A DNA stretch of 54,642 nucleotides from Moorena sp. SIO3A2 (GTDB lineage Bacteria; Cyanobacteriota; Cyanobacteriia; Cyanobacteriales; Coleofasciculaceae): positions 70,161-124,802 of the forward strand of contig NZ_JAAHHC010000004.1 of the NCBI RefSeq assembly GCF_010672265.1, written 5' to 3'. The notes under the pieces are model-generated. The model had not been told where the DNA came from. It was given only the letters and a program-made list of their open reading frames with translations, and did not search any database. Position numbers and translations under genes: made by a program. This document shows positions 3-29,454 of this stretch, one piece after another; the first letter of the stretch is position 1; every line of letters starts with the position of its first letter.

Positions 3-3000
3 ACTAGTGGCTGTGCTTATAATGAACTAAAACTCTGGAATATATTTATCCCCCAAAATGTGCAAGAGGTTCATGACTTGATGCCGGAGGCGATTCATGA
101 ACTGCCTAAGGATGATTATCGAAAACTGCAAGAGAGTGGTGAATTAGATCACGAAATTGACCAAAAGGAGTTGCAACGAGCTAAACAGGTTTATTATCAA
201 CAGCCAATTCAATCGATATTGGATGTGATCAAAGACTCTCAAGGCTATCGCTATTTGGTGGTTTTAGGAAACCCAGGCTCTGGTAAATCTACCTTGCTGC
301 AATATTTAGCATTGGAGTGGGCAAGAACTGATCTAACTACTGAAAGTTCTCTACGGATTCCGTTACTGATTGACTTACCCACTTATATCCGGAATCGCGA
401 TAGTGGACAGTGTCAGGATTTCTTGGAATTCTGCCATCAAAGTAGTGGAGCGATATGTGATATCAATCAAAATAAACTTGATGATCAGTTAAAGGCTGGT
501 AAGGTTTTAGTGATGTTTGATGGCTTGGATGAAGTGTTTGAGCCAGGGAAACGAGAAGATGTCATTACTGATATTCATCGCTTTACGAATCAGTATCCTA
601 AGGTAAGAGTAATTGTGACATCTCGGGTAATTGGTTATAAACCTCAACGGCTACGGGATGCTGAATTTCGTCATGTTATGCTCCAAGACTTGGAGTCGGA
701 AAAAATTCAAAAGTTTATCGAGCAGTGGCATGAGTTAACCTTTACTGATGAAGGGGATAAAGTTAGGAAACAGGAGCGCTTACAAAAAGCCATTAAGACA
801 TCCTCTCGGATTCGAGAACTGGCGCAAAATCCCCTATTACTAACCATGATGGCAATCCTGAACCACAATCAAGAATTGCCTCGTGACCGCTCTGAACTCT
901 ATAACCAATCTTCTCGGTTACTGCTCCATCAATGGGATGTGGAACTAGCATTACTAGAAGATAATCGTGTTGATCCGAAGACTATTGATTATCAAGATAA
1001 GCAACAGATATTGGGAAAAGTGGCAGATTTCATGCAGGGTAATCAAGGGGGATTAGCGGGAAATCTGATTAGTGGGGAAGATTTAGAAAGAATTATCAAA
1101 GAGGAGCTGAAATTACGGGAGGTTACTAATCCTAAAGCTGTTGCTAAGGTAATGATTAATCAGTTGTGTACCCGCAATTTTATCTTCTGTTCAATGGGAG
1201 CCAATTACTACGCTTTTGTGCATCGGACATTTTTGAACTATTTCTGTGCTCGGGAATTGGTCAGGAAATTTGAGAAAAAGCAGGATATTTCCCTAGCACA
1301 GTTGAAAAACGAGGTATTTGGTAAGCACTGGCGGGATGAATATTGGCATGAAGCGCTGCAGTTGATTGTGGGCATGATTGATTCTACCAAAGGTGGAGAG
1401 ATTATTGAGTATTTGATGGAACAAGGTGGAGTAGAGGATGATTTTAATAATTTATTTCTGGCAGGGGATTGTTTATCTGAGGTTAGGAATCGGTATGAGA
1501 TTAAATCAACGAATATTGGATTACTGAATCGCGTCAAAGACTTAATTCATTATGATCTAAATTCTACTGATAACAAGTATGGAGATGAGGCCAACTTAGT
1601 CCGTGATATTCGCACTAAAGCTGTTGTAGCAGTAGCCACCCATTGGCAAGACCACCGAGATACCTTAGCCCTACTTAAAAAATTGGCTCGCTCGGATGCT
1701 GATAGGTATGTGCGAGTTAGAGCAATTGAACAGTTAGTTCAAGGTTACAAAGACCACCGAGATACCTTAGCCCTACTTAAAAAATTGGCTCGCTCTGATA
1801 CGGATTTGTGGGTGCGAGCTACAGCAATTGAACAGTTAGCTAAAGGTTACAAAGACCACCGAGATACCTTAGCCATACTTCAAGAATTGGCTCGCTCTGA
1901 TACGGATTTGTGGGTGCGATGTAGAGCAATTGAACAGTTAGCTAAAGGTTACAAAGACCACCGAGATACCTTAGCCATACTTAAACAATCGGCTCGCTCT
2001 GATACTGATTCGGAGGTGCGAATTACAGCAATTGAACAGTTAGCTCAAGGTTACAAAGACCACCAATATACCTTAGCACTACTTGAACAATCGGCTCGCT
2101 GTGATACTGATTCGGAGGTGCGAGTTAGAGCAATTGAACAGTTAGTTCAAGCTTACAAAGACCACCTAGATACCTTAGACATACTTCAAGAATTGGCTCG
2201 CTATAATACTGATTCGTGGGTGCGAGGTACAGCAATTGAACAGTTAGCTAAAGGTTACAAAGACCACCGAGATACCTTAGCCATACTTAAACAATCGGCT
2301 CGCTGTGATCAAGATTGGCAGGTGCGAGTTAGAGCAATTGAACAGTTAGCTCAAGGTTACAAAGACCACCGAGATACCTTAGCCCTACTTCAAGAATTGG
2401 CTCGCTGTGATACTGATTCGGATGTTCGATGTAAAGCAATTGAACAGTTAGCTAAAAGTTACAAAGACCAGCGAGATACCATAGCCATACTTCAAGAATT
2501 GGCTCGCTCTGATACTGATTCGTGGGTAAGAATTACAGCAATTGAACAGTTAGCTAAAGGTTACAAAGACCACCGAGATACCATAGCCCTACTTCAACAA
2601 TGGGCTCGCTCTGATACTGATTCGTGGGTACGAGTTACAGCAATTGAACAGTTAGCTAAAGGTTACAAAGACCACCGAGATACCATAGCCCTACTTCAAC
2701 AATGGGCTCGCTATAATACTGATTCGAGTGTGCGAGTTAGAGCAATTGAACAGTTAGCTAAAGGTTACAAAGACCACCGAGATACCATAGCCCTACTTCA
2801 ACAATGGGCTCGCTCTGATACTGATTGGCAGGTGCGATGTACAGCAATTGAACAGTTAGCTAAACGTTACCAAGACGACCGAGATACCTTGGCCCTACTT
2901 CAAGAATCGGCTCGCTCTGATACTGATTCGGATGTGCGAGTTACAGCAATTAAACAGTTAGCTAAACGTTACCAAGACCACCGAGATACCTTAGCCCTAC

Positions 3001-3341
3001 TTCAAGAATCGGCTCGCTCTGATACTGATTCGGATGTGCGAGGTAGAGCAATTGAACTGTTAGCTCAAGGTTGGCACGATCGCGTAGCGTGGCCTACGGC
3101 CAATCAGCCTTGGTTATTTGAATTTTTATGCGATCGCATTCTCCATGACCCCTATGATCCTAATAAGGATAAGAAAAACGTGATTGTCTATGGACTAGAA
3201 AACAATCCTCGACAAGCAGCCCTTAATGCCATCCTCAAATATTATCCTAACCATTCCCAAACCCGATCCTTATTACAGGATAGAGCAGAGCATGACTCCG
3301 ATCCTGAACTGCGGAAGTTTGCTAAGGAGAATTTAGCATGA
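3..3341 (+). CDS. NACHT-domain STAND NTPase with C-terminal array of 14 x 31-aa HEAT/PBS-lyase-type repeats; 5' end cut by window edge (reading frame is open from base 3)
   Basis: Walker A GNPGSGKST, Walker B VLVMFDGLDEV, NACHT-like order of motifs; repeats HRDTLALLQELARSDTDSWVRxxAIEQLAKGYKD; N-terminal residues TSGCAYNELKLW.. match internal region of the paralog at 4320-4400, so the true start is upstream of the window. Confidence 0.8.
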   Translation, partial: TSGCAYNELKLWNIFIPQNVQEVHDLMPEAIHELPKDDYRKLQESGELDHEIDQKELQRAKQVYYQQPIQSILDVIKDSQGYRYLVVLGNPGSGKSTLLQYLALEWARTDLTTESSLRIPLLIDLPTYIRNRDSGQCQDFLEFCHQSSGAICDINQNKLDDQLKAGKVLVMFDGLDEVFEPGKREDVITDIHRFTNQYPKVRVIVTSRVIGYKPQRLRDAEFRHVMLQDLESEKIQKFIEQWHELTFTDEGDKVRKQERLQKAIKTSSRIRELAQNPLLLTMMAILNHNQELPRDRSELYNQSSRLLLHQWDVELALLEDNRVDPKTIDYQDKQQILGKVADFMQGNQGGLAGNLISGEDLERIIKEELKLREVTNPKAVAKVMINQLCTRNFIFCSMGANYYAFVHRTFLNYFCARELVRKFEKKQDISLAQLKNEVFGKHWRDEYWHEALQLIVGMIDSTKGGEIIEYLMEQGGVEDDFNNLFLAGDCLSEVRNRYEIKSTNIGLLNRVKDLIHYDLNSTDNKYGDEANLVRDIRTKAVVAVATHWQDHRDTLALLKKLARSDADRYVRVRAIEQLVQGYKDHRDTLALLKKLARSDTDLWVRATAIEQLAKGYKDHRDTLAILQELARSDTDLWVRCRAIEQLAKGYKDHRDTLAILKQSARSDTDSEVRITAIEQLAQGYKDHQYTLALLEQSARCDTDSEVRVRAIEQLVQAYKDHLDTLDILQELARYNTDSWVRGTAIEQLAKGYKDHRDTLAILKQSARCDQDWQVRVRAIEQLAQGYKDHRDTLALLQELARCDTDSDVRCKAIEQLAKSYKDQRDTIAILQELARSDTDSWVRITAIEQLAKGYKDHRDTIALLQQWARSDTDSWVRVTAIEQLAKGYKDHRDTIALLQQWARYNTDSSVRVRAIEQLAKGYKDHRDTIALLQQWARSDTDWQVRCTAIEQLAKRYQDDRDTLALLQESARSDTDSDVRVTAIKQLAKRYQDHRDTLALLQESARSDTDSDVRGRAIELLAQGWHDRVAWPTANQPWLFEFLCDRILHDPYDPNKDKKNVIVYGLENNPRQAALNAILKYYPNHSQTRSLLQDRAEHDSDPELRKFAKENLA

Positions 3342-3494
3342 AGAATTTAGAATTTAGAATTTAGAATTTAGAATTTAGAATTTAGAATTTAGAATTTAGA
3401 ATGTAGAATGTAGAATTTAGAATTTAGAATGAAGAATGAAGAATGAAGAATGAAGAATGAAGAATTTAGAATTTAGAATTTAGAATTTAGAATT
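3342..3494. repeat. heptanucleotide tandem repeat (GAATTTA / GAATGAA variants), STRR-like
   Basis: about 20 tandem 7-mers directly after stop codon of first NACHT gene. Confidence 0.9.
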
Positions 3495-3497
3495 AAG

Positions 3498-3682
3498 GCG
3501 TAGGGTGTGTTAGGGACGGGCTCGCCAAGACGCAAGCCATAGCAAGTGTTAGGTTGTTGCCCGTAACGCACCACCGCGTCAAATAGCATGCATTGAGATG
3601 CACCAGGCTCGCCCTCATGTTATCCTTAGCCAGTGTTGAGAAAGTCCGTCCCGTAACGCACTATCAGGTCAAACTGATTGCC
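3498..3682. repeat. two tandem copies of a ~100-bp dispersed repeat family (…TAGGGACGGG…CCGTCCCGTAACGCACCAC…GCAT..GAGATGCACC)
   Basis: same family recurs at 28690-28960; units contain inverted GGGACGG / CCGTCCC arms. Confidence 0.7.
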
Positions 3683-3727: not shown

Positions 3728-6700
3728 ATGCTGGATTGGTTAGCAATTTGGGGACTTTATACTGCTGGTGACTATCTTGCCAAGGAAGTAATTGGTCCTT
3801 TGGCGAAAGAAGCTCTAGAAGACTATACTAAAGAGTTTTTCAAAGAGTCTATTAAAGATTATACTGGACTATCGGATCAAAATATCCAGAAAAAACTCTT
3901 GGGTAAAGCCTTAAAAGAATTTGTGGCTTTAGTGCAAGAAGAATTGGAAGATGCGGATTTATCTAAGCAAGACGTAAAACAGTATACTAAACCCCTCAAG
4001 CAGTATATTAAACATAAATCTATTAAAGCTATCCTGGGCAGTGCTTTCAAGTATGGCTGTAAACGAATCGATACCGATACCTTAGCCCACACTTGGATTG
4101 AGCTTGACTTATTACCATTACCGGAAGGATTTGATTGGCACTATATTGGTAAACAGTATGTCAAGGAAGTAAAAACGATTATTCGGGAATCCGATGATTT
4201 ACGGCCTATTCGGGATTCCCAAACCTTGGAAGCGATCGCAGAAAACACTAAACCAGGAATTATCCCAGATTTTGACTTAAGGGAATATCAGGAAGCACTC
4301 CTAGAGAGCTACGGTAATGTCAAATTGGATAGTTTAGATACTAGTGGCTGTGCTTATAACGAACTAAAACTATGGAAAATATTTATCCCTCAAAATGTCC
4401 GAGAAGTTCATGACTTGATGCCGGAGGCGATTCATGAACTTCCTAAGGATGATTCTCAAAAACTGCGCGAGAGTGGTCAACTACAAAGGGAAATTGACAA
4501 AGATGAGTTGAAACGAGCTAAAGAGCGTTATTATCAACAACCGATAAAATCCGTATTGGATGTAATTGAGGACTCTCAAAGCTATCGGTATTTGGTGGTT
4601 TTAGGAGACCCAGGCTCTGGTAAATCTACGTTGCTGCAATATTTAGCATTGGAGTGGGCAAAAACCGATCTAACTACTGACAGTTCTCTATCAATTCCCT
4701 TACTGATTGAATTACGCACCTATATCCGGAATTGCGATAGTGGACAGTGTAATAACTTCTTGGAATTCTGCCATCAAAGCAGTGGAGCGATATGTCATCT
4801 GAATCAACATCACCTTGATCAGGAGTTAAAAGATGGTAAGGTGTTAGTTATGTTTGATGGCTTGGATGAAGTGTTTGATCCAGAGAAACGAATAGATGTA
4901 ATTACGGAGATTCATCGCTTTACCAATCGCTATCCTAAAGTAAGAGTAATTGTAACATCTCGGGTAATTGGTTATAAACCCCAACGGCTACGGGATGCTG
5001 AATTCCGTCATGTTATGCTCCAAGACTTGGAGTCAGAACAAATTCAAAACTTTATTGAGAAGTGGCATAAATTAAACTTTACTGATCAAGCCGATAAAGT
5101 TAGGAAACAGGAGCGCTTACAAAAAGCCATTGAGACATCCTATCGGATTCGAGAACTGGCGCAAAATCCCCTATTACTAACCATGATGGCAATCCTGAAT
5201 CGCAATCAAGACTTGCCTCGTGACCGCTCTGAACTCTATAACCAATCCTCTCGATTACTGCTCCATCAATGGGATGTGGAACGAGCATTACAAGAAGATC
5301 ATCGTGTTGACCCGAAGATTATTGATGATGAATATAAGCAACATATACTAAGAAAAGTGGCATATTTTATGCAGGGTAATCAAGCCGGATTAGCGGGAAA
5401 TCTGATTAGTGGAGAGGATTTAGAACGGATTATCAAAGATGATCTGAAACTACAGGATTTTACTAATCCCAGAGACGTTGCTAAGGTAATGATTAATCAG
5501 TTGCGCACCCGCAATTTTATCTTGTGTTTCATGGGAGCCGATTATTACGCTTTTGTGCATCGGACATTTTTGGAATATTTCTGTGCTTGGAAATTTGTCA
5601 TGAAATTTGAGAAAACCCAGGAGATTGACCTAGAACAGTTAAAAACCGAAGTATTTGGTAAGCACTGGCGAGATGAATCGTGGCATGAAGTGCTGAGGTT
5701 GATTGTGGGCATGATTTATTCTAAGAAAGGTGGAGAGATTATTGAGTATTTGATGGCACAAGATGGAGAAGGGTATAAGTTTGGTAATTTATTTCTGGCA
5801 GCAGATTGTTTGTCTGAGGTTAGGAATCGGTATGAGATTAAATTAACGGATACTGGATTACTAAATCGTATCAAAGACTTAATTTACTATGATCTAAATT
5901 ATTATTATGACCAGTATGGAGATGAGACAAGGTTAGTCCGTGATATTCGCACTAACGCTGTGGTAGCAGTAGCCACCCATTGGCAACACCATACAGATAC
6001 CTTACCCCTACTTCAACAATCGGCTCGCTCTGATAAAGATTCGTGGGTGCGACGTACAGCAATAGAACAGTTAGCTCAAGGTTACAAAGACCATCGAGAT
6101 ACCTTACCCCTAATTCAAGAATCGGCTCGCTCTGATACTAATTCGTTGGTGCGAGTTACAGCAATAGAACAGTTAGCTCAAGGTTACCAAGACCATCGAG
6201 ATACCTTACCCCTACTTCAAGAATGGGCTCGCTCTGATAATGATTCGTGGGTGCGAGGTGAAGCAATAGAACAGTTAGCTAAAGGTTACCAAGACCACCC
6301 AGATACCTTACCCCTACTTCAACAATCCGCTCGCTCTGATAAAGATTCGTGGGTGCGACGTACAGCAATAGAACAGTTAGCTCAAGGTTACCAAGACCAT
6401 CGAGATACCTTACCCCTACTTCAAGAATGGGCTCGCTCTGATAAAGATTCGTGGGTGCGACGTAAAGCAATAGAACAGTTAGCTCAAGGTTACAAAGACC
6501 ATCGAGATACCTTAGCCATACTTCAAGAATCCGCTCGCTCTGATAATGATTGGAAGGTGCGAGGTGAAGCAATAGAACAGTTAGCTCAAGGTTACAAAGA
6601 CCACCCAGATACCTTAGCCATACTTCAAGAATCCGCTCGCTCTGATAAAGATTCGTGGGTGCGACGTACAGCAATAGAACAGTTAGCTCAAGGTTACAAA

Positions 6701-8887
6701 GACCATCGAGATACCTTACCCCTACTTCAAGAATACGCTCGCTCTGATAGTGATTCGGATGTGCGAGGTGAAGCAATAGAACAGTTAGCTAAAGGTTACC
6801 AAGACCACCCAGATACCTTACCCCTACTTCAACAATCGGCTCGCTCTGATAAAGATTCGTGGGTGCGACGTAAAGCAATAGAACAGTTAGCTCAAGGTTA
6901 CAAAGACCATCGAGATACCTTAGCCATACTTCAAGAATCCGCTCGCTCTGATACTGATTCGGATGTGCTGCGAGGTAAAGCAATTGAACTGTTAGCTCAA
7001 GGTTACAAAGACGACCCAGATACCTTACCTCTACTTCAACAATCCGCTCGCTCTGATAAAGATTCGGATGTGCGAGTTACAGCAATTAAACAGTTAGCTG
7101 AAGGTTACAAAGACCACCAAGATACCTTACCCCTACTTCAACAATCGGCTCGCTCTGATAAAGATTCGTGGGTGCGACGTAAAGCAATAGAACAGTTAGC
7201 TAAAGGTTACAAAGACCATCGAGATACCTTAGCCATACTTCAAGAATCCGCTCGCTCTGATACTGATTCGGATGTGCTGCGAGGTAAAGCAATTGAACTG
7301 TTAGCTCAAGGTTACAAAGACGACCCAGATACCTTACCTCTACTTCAACAATCCGCTCGCTCTGATAAAGATTCGGATGTGCGAGTTACAGCAATTAAAC
7401 AGTTAGCTAAAGGTTACCAAGACCACCCAGATACCTTAGCCATACTTCAAGAATCCGCTCGCTCTGATACTGATTCGGATGTGCGAGGTGAAGCAATAGA
7501 ACAGTTAGCTAAAGGTTACCAAGACCACCCAGATACCTTAGCCATACTTCAAGAATCCGCTCGCTCTGATAGTGATTCGGATGTGCGAGGTACAGCAATT
7601 AAACAGTTAGCTAAAGGTTACAAAGACCACCAAGATACCTTACCCCTACTTCAAGAATCCGCTCGCTCTGATAAAGATTCGGATGTGCGAGTTACAGCAA
7701 TAGAACAGTTAGCTGAAGGTTACCAAGACCACCAAGATACCTTACCTCTACTTCAACAATCGGCTCGCTCTGATACTGATTCGGATGTGCGAGGTAAAGC
7801 AATTCAACAGTTAGCTCAAGGTTACCAAGACCACCCAGATACCTTACCTCTACTTCAAGAATACGCTCGCTCTGATAAAGATTCGGATGTGCGAGTTACA
7901 GCAATTAAACAGTTAGCTGAAGGTTACAAAGACCACCAAGATACCTTACCCCTACTTCAAGAATCCGCTCGCTCTGATAAAGATTCGGATGTGCGAGTTA
8001 CAGCAATAGAACAGTTAGCTGAAGGTTACCAAGACCACCCAGATACTTTACCCATACTTCAAGAATCCGCTCGCTCTGATAGTGATTCGGATGTGCGAGG
8101 TACAGCAATTAAACAGTTAGCTCAAGGTTACAAAGACCACCAAGATACCTTAGCCATACTTCAAGAATCCGCTCGCTCTGATACTGATTCGGATGTGCGA
8201 GGTAAAGCAATTCAACAGTTAGCTCAAGGTTACCAAGACCACCCAGATACCTTACCTCTACTTCAAGAATACGCTCGCTCTGATAAAGATTCGGATGTGC
8301 GAGTTACAGCAATAGAACAGTTAGCTGAAGGTTACAAAGACCACCAAGATACCTTACCCCTACTTCAAGAATACGCTCGCTCTGATAGTGATTCGGATGT
8401 GCGAGGTGAAGCAATAGAACAGTTAGCTCAAGGTTACCAAGACCACCCAGATACCTTAGCCATACTTCAAGAATCCGCTCGCTCTGATACTGATTCGGAT
8501 GTGCGAGGTAAAGCAATAGAACAGTTAGCTAAAGGTTACCAAGACCACCCAGATACCTTAGCCATACTTCAAGAATCCGCTCGCTCTGATACTGATTCGG
8601 ATGTGCGAGGTAAAGCAATTCAACAGTTAGCTCAAGCTTGGCACGACCAGCTTTGGTTATCGCAATTTTTATGCGATCGCACTCTCCATGACCCCTTTGA
8701 CCCTGATAAAGACAGAGATTACGAGAGAGATGACGAGAATTACAATCCTCGACAAATAGCCCTTCAGGCCATTCTCGAATATTATCCTAACCATTCCCAA
8801 ATCCGGTCTTTATTGCGGGATAGAGCAAAGCATGACCCTGATCCTAAACTGCGGGAGTTTGCTAAGGAGCAATTAGCAAAATTATAG
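3728..8887 (+). CDS. NACHT-domain STAND NTPase, 1719 aa; ~220-aa N-terminal extension + NACHT + 26 HEAT/PBS-lyase-type repeats; tandem paralog of upstream gene
   Basis: GDPGSGKST Walker A, VLVMFDGLDEV Walker B, about 90% DNA identity with gene 1 across NACHT region; 26 x 31-aa repeats (two are 32 aa). Confidence 0.85.
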   Translation: MLDWLAIWGLYTAGDYLAKEVIGPLAKEALEDYTKEFFKESIKDYTGLSDQNIQKKLLGKALKEFVALVQEELEDADLSKQDVKQYTKPLKQYIKHKSIKAILGSAFKYGCKRIDTDTLAHTWIELDLLPLPEGFDWHYIGKQYVKEVKTIIRESDDLRPIRDSQTLEAIAENTKPGIIPDFDLREYQEALLESYGNVKLDSLDTSGCAYNELKLWKIFIPQNVREVHDLMPEAIHELPKDDSQKLRESGQLQREIDKDELKRAKERYYQQPIKSVLDVIEDSQSYRYLVVLGDPGSGKSTLLQYLALEWAKTDLTTDSSLSIPLLIELRTYIRNCDSGQCNNFLEFCHQSSGAICHLNQHHLDQELKDGKVLVMFDGLDEVFDPEKRIDVITEIHRFTNRYPKVRVIVTSRVIGYKPQRLRDAEFRHVMLQDLESEQIQNFIEKWHKLNFTDQADKVRKQERLQKAIETSYRIRELAQNPLLLTMMAILNRNQDLPRDRSELYNQSSRLLLHQWDVERALQEDHRVDPKIIDDEYKQHILRKVAYFMQGNQAGLAGNLISGEDLERIIKDDLKLQDFTNPRDVAKVMINQLRTRNFILCFMGADYYAFVHRTFLEYFCAWKFVMKFEKTQEIDLEQLKTEVFGKHWRDESWHEVLRLIVGMIYSKKGGEIIEYLMAQDGEGYKFGNLFLAADCLSEVRNRYEIKLTDTGLLNRIKDLIYYDLNYYYDQYGDETRLVRDIRTNAVVAVATHWQHHTDTLPLLQQSARSDKDSWVRRTAIEQLAQGYKDHRDTLPLIQESARSDTNSLVRVTAIEQLAQGYQDHRDTLPLLQEWARSDNDSWVRGEAIEQLAKGYQDHPDTLPLLQQSARSDKDSWVRRTAIEQLAQGYQDHRDTLPLLQEWARSDKDSWVRRKAIEQLAQGYKDHRDTLAILQESARSDNDWKVRGEAIEQLAQGYKDHPDTLAILQESARSDKDSWVRRTAIEQLAQGYKDHRDTLPLLQEYARSDSDSDVRGEAIEQLAKGYQDHPDTLPLLQQSARSDKDSWVRRKAIEQLAQGYKDHRDTLAILQESARSDTDSDVLRGKAIELLAQGYKDDPDTLPLLQQSARSDKDSDVRVTAIKQLAEGYKDHQDTLPLLQQSARSDKDSWVRRKAIEQLAKGYKDHRDTLAILQESARSDTDSDVLRGKAIELLAQGYKDDPDTLPLLQQSARSDKDSDVRVTAIKQLAKGYQDHPDTLAILQESARSDTDSDVRGEAIEQLAKGYQDHPDTLAILQESARSDSDSDVRGTAIKQLAKGYKDHQDTLPLLQESARSDKDSDVRVTAIEQLAEGYQDHQDTLPLLQQSARSDTDSDVRGKAIQQLAQGYQDHPDTLPLLQEYARSDKDSDVRVTAIKQLAEGYKDHQDTLPLLQESARSDKDSDVRVTAIEQLAEGYQDHPDTLPILQESARSDSDSDVRGTAIKQLAQGYKDHQDTLAILQESARSDTDSDVRGKAIQQLAQGYQDHPDTLPLLQEYARSDKDSDVRVTAIEQLAEGYKDHQDTLPLLQEYARSDSDSDVRGEAIEQLAQGYQDHPDTLAILQESARSDTDSDVRGKAIEQLAKGYQDHPDTLAILQESARSDTDSDVRGKAIQQLAQAWHDQLWLSQFLCDRTLHDPFDPDKDRDYERDDENYNPRQIALQAILEYYPNHSQIRSLLRDRAKHDPDPKLREFAKEQLAKL

Positions 8888-27195: not shown

Positions 27196-28635
27196 TTGGC
27201 GGCGGTCGTAGGTCATGGAAGTTCACCCATCAAATTAACTATGCAACTTAACGATCGACTTATCTGCGCCCCAACCCTAGAAGAAGCAATTGACCATCAG
27301 CCTTTGATCGTTGCTCCTGACACCCTTCTAATCGACATAATTGCTTTGATGAGTCAGGAGCGAGGCAAAAGTTGTTCATTGCCCAATTTCCACTCACCAT
27401 CAGACCAGCTCAGCATTCGTGAGCCACGGTCTAGCTGCGTTTTGGTAATGGACTCAGACCAGTTGCTGGGAATCTTTACTGAGCGCGATATTGTCCGGCT
27501 GACGGCTAATGGCATTAACTTTCAAGAGGTAACAGTAGCTGAGGTCATGGCACAGCCGGTGATTACGTTTCCTCAAACTGCTTGTCGGGATATCTTTGCC
27601 GCCTTATTTATATTTCGTCGGTTTCGGATTCGCCACTTACCAATTGTGGATGATCATGGTCAGCTAGTGGGTGTTGTCTCACCAGAGCGAATTCGCCAGG
27701 TATTGCGACCAGCCAATCTGCTCAAGTTACGGCGGGTATCAGAAGTGATGACCCCCCAGGTGGTTAATGCCCTTCCAACTGTCTCAGTATTGAGTTTAGC
27801 CCGACTCATGAATAAGCACCGAGTTAGTTGTGTGGTCATTACCTCCGACCATGGAGAGGATAACTGTATGCCAGTGGGGATTGTCACAGAGCGGGATATT
27901 GTCCAATTTCAGTCTCTGAAGCTGAATTTGTCTAAAGTCCAGGCTCAGGATGTGATGAGTACACCTCTATTTCTGCTGAGTCCTGAGGATTCTCTATGGA
28001 CAGCTCATCAGGAAATGCAAAAGCGTCGTGTGCGGCGATTGGTGGTGTCTTGGAATTGGGGTAAAGAAATTGGTATTGTCACCCAAACAACCCTGCTGCG
28101 AGTGTTTGACCCAATGGAAATGTATGGGATTGTGGAGACATTGCAGCAAACCGTTGAGCAATTAGACCCAGCCAAAGAATCCGTGAACAAATCCCACAAA
28201 GCCATTCCCCCTGGTGAAGAATCTGGGGAGGTGGCAGAAAATGCGATCGCTTTATCAGGAGATAGGTTTAATCATAAATCAGAGCCACCCAACACAGACC
28301 AAAACACAGACCAAAACAGAGAACTAACAGTGATTTTGTCACAACCCATAGAGGGTCAAGCATTAAATACTTCCCAACAGTGTGAGGCTTTCAAATACCC
28401 CAAAAGTAAATTGGGTACCACTCAAGATTATCAACTGTGTATCCTGCTCAACACTATTCAAGCTATTCTAGAAAACCTAGCTGACCACTCTACCCTATCA
28501 TCAGAATTACGTCAAAGCCAGCTTAAGTCAGCCTTAGATAATGTTGATCAAATGCGAGAGCTAATACAGAAAGCCCAAAACCAGTCTTGTCGGGATCAGG
28601 TCGTGGTAGATCAGGTAGGTACTTCTAGCAGTTAA
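27196..28635 (+). CDS. CBS-domain protein (two CBS pairs) with unstructured C-terminal region, 479 aa
   Basis: four CBS-like segments (…IFTERDIVRL…, …VGVVSPERIRQV…, …GIVTERDIVQF…, …GIVTQTTLLRV…). Confidence 0.7.
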   Translation: MAAVVGHGSSPIKLTMQLNDRLICAPTLEEAIDHQPLIVAPDTLLIDIIALMSQERGKSCSLPNFHSPSDQLSIREPRSSCVLVMDSDQLLGIFTERDIVRLTANGINFQEVTVAEVMAQPVITFPQTACRDIFAALFIFRRFRIRHLPIVDDHGQLVGVVSPERIRQVLRPANLLKLRRVSEVMTPQVVNALPTVSVLSLARLMNKHRVSCVVITSDHGEDNCMPVGIVTERDIVQFQSLKLNLSKVQAQDVMSTPLFLLSPEDSLWTAHQEMQKRRVRRLVVSWNWGKEIGIVTQTTLLRVFDPMEMYGIVETLQQTVEQLDPAKESVNKSHKAIPPGEESGEVAENAIALSGDRFNHKSEPPNTDQNTDQNRELTVILSQPIEGQALNTSQQCEAFKYPKSKLGTTQDYQLCILLNTIQAILENLADHSTLSSELRQSQLKSALDNVDQMRELIQKAQNQSCRDQVVVDQVGTSSS

Positions 28636-28689
28636 GGTAATCCAGATTTAATGGGCATATTTGAAGGGGTCTCTTGGGGTGCATCTCAC

Positions 28690-28960
28690 TTTTGTAAATG
28701 TTCGTAGGGTGCCTTAGGGACGGGGTACCCCTTATGTTCTTGGTAGCCAGTGTTAGGAGAATCCGTCCCGGATGCTGTTGGTGAAATATTTCTTAACAAA
28801 CCAAGAAGCCCCCTCAGCCCTCACCCCCAGCCCCTCTCCCAACCTTGGGAGAGGGGAGCAGATTACGGCAGAATAAGGGTTTCACGAATTCGCCAGCAGC
28901 ATCCGTCCCGTAACGCACCACCTGCTCAAACGGCAAAAATGAGATGCACCCGTCTCTTGT
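28690..28960. repeat. copy of the 3498-3682 dispersed repeat family, interrupted by a MITE-like insertion
   Basis: GTAGGGTGCCTTAGGGACGGG…CCAGTGTTAGGAGAATCCGTCCCG[insert]ATCCGTCCCGTAACGCACCACCTGCTCAAA…GAGATGCACCC. Confidence 0.7.
28771..28900. mobile_element. 130-bp MITE-like insertion with ~11-bp terminal inverted repeats (GATGCTGTTGG / CCAGCAGCATC) and 9-10-bp target duplication (A)TCCGTCCCG; internal palindrome CCCTCTCCCAACCTTGGGAGAGGGG
   Basis: empty-site equivalent AAGTCCGTCCCGTAACGCAC present uninterrupted at 3643-3662. Confidence 0.6.
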
Positions 28961-28968
28961 AGGGTAGG

Positions 28969-29454
28969 TTAACGGTCAACAATAACTAATTGGAATTCCT
29001 TGAGTGCTGGTAAAAAGTTTTTGTTTTCATGACTAGGGCGCGTCAGTTTAATCAGGGCAAAACGTTGGATAGGAGTTAGTGCTGCCCACTGTTGAGGAGT
29101 TACTACGACTCCAAATTCCATAGCTTTTTCCGCCACGGTAGATGGAATTACCTGAGAATTCATCCAGGGAGCTTGGGGATCAACAGGTAAATTAGAAGCC
29201 GGTTTTCCTGTATAGTTTATAACTAGGTGTTGAACATAGTCTCCATACTTTTGGATTGACTCGGTCGTAGTGCAGGGTATCTCTACCAGTTGCTGACGCT
29301 CCTGTTGATTAAACTGATGCCAGTGGCTCAGTTTAAGTTTGATGCCGCAAGTGTCTAATTTCATCCGCACTTGTATAGGAATGCACCGTAAAGAATCCAC
29401 AAAATCCGTTTCAAATTGGAAAAAATTAGTCATAGTCTTCTCAATCTTATTCAT
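28969..29454 (-). CDS. conserved hypothetical protein, 161 aa (possibly nitrate-reductase-associated-protein-like family; low certainty)
   Basis: ORF with ATGA overlap to upstream gene; no motif I can name with confidence. Confidence 0.4.
   Translation of the reverse strand: MNKIEKTMTNFFQFETDFVDSLRCIPIQVRMKLDTCGIKLKLSHWHQFNQQERQQLVEIPCTTTESIQKYGDYVQHLVINYTGKPASNLPVDPQAPWMNSQVIPSTVAEKAMEFGVVVTPQQWAALTPIQRFALIKLTRPSHENKNFLPALKEFQLVIVDR

Follow-up and report, generated by a model that had tools for sequence, protein, structure and literature searches.

The 133-bp segment that interrupts a palindromic repeat in the 54,642-nucleotide stretch of Moorena sp. SIO3A2 DNA analysed here (the window) is, judged by its sequence, a real MITE: it has terminal inverted repeats (TIRs) and a flanking duplication (TSD), is small and lacks a transposase gene, and shows dispersed copies and a filled/empty polymorphism. 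The original prediction of a mobile non-autonomous element is borne out by these features together with the lack of credible coding, a TIR of the IS1182 type and orthologous loci that are free of the insertion. We consider it very probable that the segment (28771-28903) is a non-autonomous DNA transposon moved in trans by a DDE transposase of the IS1182 family. In the mechanism that we propose, the 15-bp ends would be the binding and cleavage sites of this transposase, which, supplied in trans, would have mobilised the 133-bp element and inserted it into the palindromic, REP-like host repeat, close to the apex; the cuts would have been staggered by 7 bp, and subsequent fill-in would have created the CGTCCCG duplication. 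The host repeat would be a preferred landing site because the transposase clade favours hairpin- or cruciform-forming DNA, and in such sites the duplicated bases would usually be the hairpin loop. An IS1182-type enzyme is thus presumably the mobilising agent, and we infer that a partner exists or existed in Moorena. The features of the locus and of its paralogous repeats are collected in Table 1.

Table 1. Positions, in the window, of the MITE, its host repeat, the flanking genes and the paralogous copies of the host repeat.
Feature	Position	Strand	Remarks
Second host-repeat paralog	3500..3604	+	inner hairpin and right outer arm; adjoins the copy at 3605-3674
Partial host-repeat paralog	3605..3674	+	target without insert; CGTCCCG (3647-3653) runs straight into TAACGCAC
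CBS-domain protein gene	27196..28635	+	convergent with narM
8-bp direct repeat, left	28669..28676		GTCTCTTG; flanks the outer element; possible TSD, copies 100% identical
Outer host element	28677..28951		palindromic, MITE-/REPIN-like; 275 bp including the MITE
Outer left arm	28677..28694	+	GGGTGCATCTCACTTTTG; 18 nt, 94% complementary to 28934-28951
Inner host hairpin, 5' arm	28704..28725	+	GTAG-tagged, GTAGGGTGCCTTAGGGACGGGG; pairs with CCGTCCCG/TAACGCACC
TSD, left copy	28764..28770		CGTCCCG, 7 bp
MITE, IS1182 type	28771..28903	+	133 bp; basis: repeats and copy comparison; on the + strand the IS-left-like end GATGCTGTTGGTGAAATATTTCTTAAC lies on the 5' side
Left TIR	28771..28785	+	GATGCTGTTGGTGAA; 1/15 mismatch to consensus GATGCTGTTGGCGAA
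GC-rich core module	28818..28859		CCCTCACCCC-CAG-CCCCTCTCCC-AACCTT-GGGAGAGGGG-AGC; includes the perfect hairpin
Right TIR	28889..28903	-	TTCGCCAGCAGCATC (reverse complement GATGCTGCTGGCGAA); 1/15 mismatch to consensus GATGCTGTTGGCGAA
TSD, right copy	28904..28910		CGTCCCG, 7 bp
Outer right arm	28934..28951	-	CAAAAATGAGATGCACCC
8-bp direct repeat, right	28952..28959		GTCTCTTG; flanks the outer element
Nitrate-reductase-associated gene (Nitr_red_assoc / NarM; PF09655)	28969..29454	-	used to fetch orthologs

A repeat search returned inverted arms of 17 nt that are 88% complementary (28769-28785 and 28889-28905), in agreement with the terminal inverted repeats that had been read from the letters, and a direct repeat (28755-28770 versus 28895-28910) in which TCCGTCCCG is exact in both copies. 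Comparison with other copies and with full-length insertion sequences (ISs) shows that the TIR consists of the 15 bp from GATGCTG onwards, so that the additional 'TC' of the 9-bp flanking repeat falls within the right TIR and CGTCCCG (7 bp) remains as the TSD. Hence, the original prediction correctly recognized an element and an exact flanking repeat, but the element measures 133 rather than 130 bp and only 7 bp of the repeat are true TSD. The two TIRs are complementary to each other at 13 of 15 positions, and each matches the family consensus at 14 of 15. Two further claims, that the element is AT-poor and that it contains an internal palindrome, were confirmed: its GC content is 53% (70% in the core) versus 43% for the window, and the arms of the internal hairpin (12 nt each, 28831-28842 and 28845-28856) are 100% complementary. 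The element is single-copy within the 54-kb window. Since no matches to the 22-mer of the left end or to the 25-mer palindrome are expected in shuffled sequences and since the same element recurs in other genomes, these features do not arise by chance. Only two ORFs touch the element, one of 70 aa that spans the borders between host and MITE and one of 40 aa, and both were judged spurious.

The GC-rich core had an early appeal as a signature of the family, owing to a hint from a plasmid search, and was discarded in this role because it is a separate and widespread palindromic module. A module like it (CCCTCACCCC-N3-CCCCTCTCCC-loop-GGGAGAGGGG-AGC) occurs as a free-standing palindrome in unrelated bacteria, namely on a plasmid of Pseudanabaena galeata (L140), where it sits within a DNA methyltransferase gene, in Cupriavidus sp. 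EM10 (L141) and on a plasmid of Fremyella diplosiphon (L142); a single Cupriavidus replicon holds it in 21 places. Other MITE subfamilies that share the TIR (L058, L078, L079, L091 and L105) also contain core-related modules, and at L105 the target hairpin is itself such a module.

As single-stranded DNA the MITE folds with a minimum free energy (MFE) of -24.7 kcal/mol (z = -3.75), and this stability, the perfect 12-bp GC-rich hairpin and the location in a 3' spacer between convergent genes are what one would expect if the segment were a functional structured element, be it a terminator, an RNA-stability hairpin or a small RNA gene. We regard this explanation as highly unlikely, because an Rfam scan of positions 28400-29200 identified no family (the best hit, with E = 0.96, being a chance match to a miRNA), no T-run follows the hairpin, the element is missing at the locus in 14 orthologous Moorena loci, and TSDs and transposase-type TIRs are explained by transposition and not by such a function. 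The idea of a structured RNA was set aside after the Rfam scan, and the composite of outer repeat and MITE in the 3' spacer gave no sign of a cellular function.

Copies elsewhere place the element in a family. The 24-mer of the left end, GATGCTGTTGGYGAAATATTTCTT, was found at 60 loci in species-representative genomes, nearly all of them from cyanobacteria and many at contig ends. Three of these loci, all different, carry 133-bp copies that are each identical to the window MITE at 125 of 133 positions: L033 in Moorena bouillonii PNG and L041 and L054 in Moorena sp. SS36440bin_2. L041 and L054 have their own clean TSD; the flanks of L033 match only with a 2-nt offset. Beyond the window, the Moorena set thus comprises three full copies and a truncated one in two other genomes. 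The Moorena copies diverge from each other by 6-10%, and on this divergence they look older than an ongoing burst. Related elements with MITE-type ends measure 143 bp in Oscillatoria sp. SIO1A7, where two copies are identical over 143/143 positions, and 168 bp in an unclassified MAG. A metagenome scan with a two-TIR pattern, in which both TIRs were required at a distance of 95-125 nt, added 55 MITE-sized elements with identical ends and many unrelated interiors. Judged by their ends, dozens of MITE subfamilies with unrelated cores have the same TIR. TSDs in this superfamily are between 0 and 10 bp long, the commonest states being 7, 6 or 2 bp or none at all.

The recurrence of the element also bears on the notion that a full-length IS1182-family IS once inserted at this site and was then reduced to the present remnant by an internal deletion. 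Decayed or internally deleted IS1182 copies with the same TIR are common (L003, L042, L055), and the left 27 nt of the MITE do match the left ends of ISs. Against this, the same 133-bp sequence, including its interior, is present at three loci in two Moorena genomes with 90-94% identity, two of these three copies (L041 and L054) have their own clean TSD, and the interior bears no similarity to a transposase gene (tblastn of the IS1182 transposase against the MITE interior). As dispersed copies of identical length would demand independent identical deletions, which is not credible, we consider the remnant reading effectively refuted.

The ends of the MITE point to the transposase that may have moved it. 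In a plasmid search the left end turned up upstream of genes annotated as 'IS1182 family transposase' in Nostoc sp. C052, first a truncated and later a full one, and GATGCTGTTGGCGAA was found at both ends of an IS on plasmid pCC7120alpha and of the elements L028 and L055. The pCC7120alpha IS of Nostoc sp. PCC 7120 is 2345 bp long, with perfect 15-bp TIRs, a 7-bp TSD (TGAAATT) and the transposase WP_010999802.1 (DUF772 + DDE_Tnp_1_6); L028 (Nostoc paludosum) spans 2480 bp with a frameshifted DUF772/DDE transposase gene and a passenger ORF of 172 aa. The TIR of the PCC 7120 element is GATGCTGTTGGCGAA, from which the MITE differs by one transition per arm, and the TIR of the MITE is close to that of ISAcma46 from Acaryochloris marina (GACACTGTTGGCGAA), which lacks a TSD and is inserted in the palindrome AATTGAAGGGT/ACCCTTCAATT, and to that of an IS from Deinococcus aetherius (GATACCGTTGGCGAA), which has a 7-bp TSD (AGGACGC). 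The TSD length of 7 bp is common to the MITE and to the PCC 7120 and Deinococcus copies. By contrast, the ISs are 1.8-2.5 kb long and carry a transposase gene whereas the MITE has 133 bp and none, and its resemblance to them ends after ~27 nt at the left end and ~17 nt at the right, the interior being unrelated. To judge from the shared TIR and the same 7-bp TSD length, the MITE is derived from the IS1182-family type.

A transposase acting in trans, as originally predicted, can therefore be assigned to the IS1182 family by matching TIRs, but not to a gene in the Moorena DNA at hand: the search for a transposase with matching TIRs found the pCC7120alpha IS and L028 and none in the window or the fetched Moorena loci, where tblastn with the full IS1182 transposase and the passenger ORF gave no match. 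Nor did the Moorena species representatives yield a full-length IS that carries the exact left-end 24-mer. The best approximation to a partner of the Moorena MITE is L042, a degenerate IS1182 copy from a marine cyanobacterial bin, whose left end is identical to that of the MITE over 27/27 nt; used as protein query, this decayed IS matched only itself and one other protein. Downstream of the transposase gene, the IS1182-clade ISs of Nostocales share a further conserved ORF of ~155-172 aa (L028 6023-6541, L005 3986-4447, L137 4370-4834), with a weak, sub-threshold similarity to PF20310 HTH_Tnp_2 (E = 5e-4), and because of this ORF they reach 2.3-2.5 kb, above the size that is usual in the family. 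On pCC7120alpha a gene for an IS200/IS605-family TnpB (L137 258-1481) lies ~1 kb from the IS1182-family element, which looks like simple clustering of mobile elements.

The sequence into which the MITE is inserted is itself a repeat, as predicted from the letters: the paralogs at 3500-3604 and 3605-3674 could be aligned with it. Without the MITE and one TSD copy the outer host element measures 135 bp, and between its outer arms lies a GTAG-tagged hairpin (GTAGGGTGCCTTAGGGACGG ... CCGTCCCGTAACGCACC) whose CCGTCCCG/TAACGCACC arm is the one split by the MITE. Devoid of the MITE, the host (136 nt in this fold) forms a single long hairpin (-28.8 kcal/mol, z = -4.9) with the target heptamer CGTCCCG at the top of the 3' arm. 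The paralog at 3605-3674 reads ...GTCCGTCCCGTAACGCAC without insert, the TSD heptamer CGTCCCG being present once (3647-3653) in this paralogous empty site. The claim of an insert-free sister copy is upheld in that the site is uninterrupted (GTCCCGTAACGCAC at 3648-3661), although AAGTCCGTCCCGTAACGCAC lies at 3642-3661, one base off the 3643-3662 given for it. The host-repeat paralogs are located in the spacer between two large ORFs (60-3341, 1093 aa, and 3728-8887, 1719 aa), inside which ~44 tandem copies of a 102-bp (34-codon) unit, 80-94% identical, occupy positions 1507-3132 and 5844-~9300. A heptamer tandem, AGAATTT x5, lies directly upstream of the paralogs (~3462-3495); at L041 an array of CTCCCGA x4-5 is found just past the host hairpin, on the right flank of the MITE.

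At the level of orthologous loci, the comparison of filled and empty sites takes a different form. The composite (outer repeat and MITE) occupies the 3' spacer between the two convergent genes, and the narM protein of the window has counterparts of 100% identity in Moorena sp. SIO3B2 and relatives. The narM-CBS locus was retrieved from further Moorena assemblies, JHB, PAL and PNG among them. Only in the window and in the near-identical contig L066 is the intergenic spacer 334 bp long; the 16 other loci represent 14 distinct ones (L071 and L072 duplicate two of those 14), and in these 14 orthologous loci it measures 80-84 bp. On the basis of these lengths the whole composite of 250 bp is lineage-specific, and since the flanking genes of the closest empty allele, L069, are 99.3% and 98.7% identical to those of the window, its gain (or loss) is recent. 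None of the 14 loci lacks the MITE alone, all being without the whole composite, and no intermediate with only the outer element was found among the fetched Moorena narM-CBS loci. The predicted contrast of a filled with an empty site is thus upheld by the paralog, but the orthologous empty sites are without both repeats. Moreover, the orthologous empty allele shows no clean footprint of excision or insertion. A single copy of the 8-bp repeat, matching at 7/8 positions (CAAGGGAC when read on the opposite strand), is present in the orthologs; after it come some 25-33 bp of unrelated sequence that are absent from the window and include a small hairpin, CGCC-TAC-GGCG. These junctions were read by eye, as the automatic alignment by MAFFT misplaced the gap. 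From the comparison of L067-L074 with the window (28669-28959), the outer element may have replaced a stem-loop rather than undergone a plain insertion.

These loci raise the question of the route by which the MITE reached the spacer. It might have arrived inside the outer element as one 275-bp composite, moved by the machinery of the outer element, either through the TIR of the latter (GGGTGCATCTCA.../...TGAGATGCACCC) or through a RAYT-like enzyme acting on the GTAG hairpin. Such an arrival bears only on the route of the MITE to this locus and is compatible with an IS1182-type MITE. The lack of an intermediate with the outer element only (spacers of 334 or 80-84 bp in the comparison with the 14 orthologous loci) would fit this route, as would the 18-nt inverted arms and exact 8-bp direct repeat of the outer element and the presence in another Moorena (L031) of a similar composite with the MITE at the same position. 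We nevertheless consider a joint arrival rather unlikely. First, the hosts of the window and L031 are 70% identical and their MITEs ~94%, which argues that the composites are not recent copies of one another. Second, the MITE at L041 is found without the outer arms and that at L054 in the opposite orientation, which argues for repeated insertion. Third, the orthologous spacer lacks a clean TSD-only difference for the outer element as well.

Repeated insertion of the IS1182-type MITE into pre-existing host repeats is also indicated by the insertion sites as a set. In four loci (window, L041, L031 and L054) the MITE is found at the same host position, CG(T/C)CCCG^TAACGCACC. The host is a minimal hairpin without outer arms at L041, L031 has a truncated MITE together with the outer element, and at L054 the MITE is inverted; the minimal hairpin of L041 and the orientation at L054 argue that insertion into host repeats happened repeatedly. 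Across these loci the host parts are 64-70% identical and the MITEs about 94%, which speaks for later, independent insertions and not for copies of a single composite.

In other subfamilies the TSD coincides with the loop of a palindrome, as in CCCCCC-TTAAGAA-GGGGGG, GTTGGGTT-...-AACCCAAC and CCCTCCCCC-TTGCTAA-GGGGGAGGG; perfect palindromes with a TSD of 0 or 2 bp also occur. A perfect stem of at least 5 bp centred on the TSD was found at 33% of 54 unique sites versus 6.3% of controls taken at random positions on the same contigs (Mann-Whitney p = 1.4e-5), and the reconstituted empty sites fold with -12.8 kcal/mol compared to -9.2 kcal/mol for controls (p = 8.7e-5). Over the set of 54 sites, the duplicated bases tend to coincide with the palindrome loop; the window site departs from this, its TSD being the apex-proximal part of the 3' arm and not the loop of a tidy local hairpin. 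The enrichment agrees with the report that some IS1182-family members target palindromes (PMC5678879). IS1272 replaces stem-loops (PMC5678879), and one branch of the published model predicts that only the loop is duplicated if the ends are joined on the 5' side of the loops (PMC5678879). Hairpin structure, not sequence, presumably guides the insertion. In Nostocales most left ends of the IS1182 type are preceded by the same ~15 nt, G[CT]GTGAGTATCAATG or GTATGAGTATCATCG (for example L096, L086, L102 and L121, among L009-L064 and others), and complete MITEs have a matching right flank, ...GAGTAGCAATG^CGTTACTACTC...; judged by these shared flanks, a single abundant palindromic repeat of Nostoc appears to be the landing site of the IS1182-type elements.

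Several known systems resemble the Moorena MITE in part. IS1272 of staphylococci, a member of the IS1182 family, replaces its target stem-loop without a TSD, and this mode was ruled out for the MITE by its 7-bp TSD and the retained arms of the host hairpin. Nezha, a MITE of Anabaena variabilis and Nostoc (Zhou, Tran & Xu 2008) with ISNpu3 as proposed partner (PMC3184786), is likewise an element of 130-170 bp in a cyanobacterial host with mobility inferred from filled and empty sites (PMC3184786) and TIRs in common with an IS from a different species (PMC3184786). Its reference copy has a 10-bp direct repeat (DR), CATTATCTAC (PMC6042816), compared to 7 bp for the Moorena MITE; this difference alone led us to reject the identity of the two, and the Moorena MITE, set apart by DR length, probably depends on a different transposase lineage. 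The ISs that target REP sequences (IS1397, ISKpn1, IS621, ISPsy8 and others; Tobes & Pareja 2006; PMC1525189) also land repeatedly at a defined REP position and give rise to nested repeats (PMC1525189). That survey covers the IS3, IS110, IS4, IS256 and IS5 families and does not name IS1182 (PMC1525189), and those systems are ISs, in contrast to the MITE that inserts into cyanobacterial palindromes in the present case. Finally, a GTAG-tagged hairpin (GTAGGGTGCC...) like that of GTAG REPs mobilised by RAYT (REPINs) belongs to the Moorena host repeat and not to the MITE; the host repeat is also a palindromic doublet-like structure, as are cyanobacterial GTAG REPs (PMC3733652, PMC3116915). The MITE has DDE-type TIRs and a TSD, neither of which is produced by RAYT movement, and it was not classified as a REPIN or RAYT-mobilised REP since its ends read GATGCTG..., lack GTAG and are flanked by a TSD.

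That cyanobacteria harbour MITEs, that small repeats can be nested and that ISs insert into palindromes is already established. In a full-text literature search for the TIR strings only unrelated primers were retrieved and the 16-mer occurred in no paper, and we found no paper describing the TIR GATGCTGTTGGCGAA or the Moorena MITE family. We give an even chance to the broader reading that GATGCTGTTGGCGAA defines a large IS1182-clade superfamily of ISs and MITEs that extends beyond cyanobacteria and whose transposase reads the structure of DNA, not its sequence, and integrates at the apex of extruded hairpins. If this were so, the length of the TSD (0-10 bp) would be set by the loop, REP-like palindromes would be reusable landing pads on which nested 'Russian-doll' repeats are built, and the CG(T/C)CCCG of the Moorena host repeat, used at four loci, would be one such pad. 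In that case the catalogue of natural insertion sites would lend the model proposed for IS1272, in its loop-duplication branch, a first broad support in silico.

For the source genome the MITE is a selfish element in a 3' spacer with little consequence, at most a strain marker, as genomes that are ~99% identical in the flanks differ by the presence of the composite. The specialist interest is limited to the breadth of the superfamily and the pattern of TSD and loop, and the element, otherwise of an ordinary kind, is mildly useful as evidence that an IS1182-type transposon family inserts into DNA hairpins. With its conserved TIRs, variable TSDs and palindromic targets, the family offers a natural dataset on the choice of hairpin targets by IS1182-family transposases, the mechanism of which is poorly characterised, and it shows how small palindromic repeats of cyanobacteria accumulate as nested structures that break assemblies.
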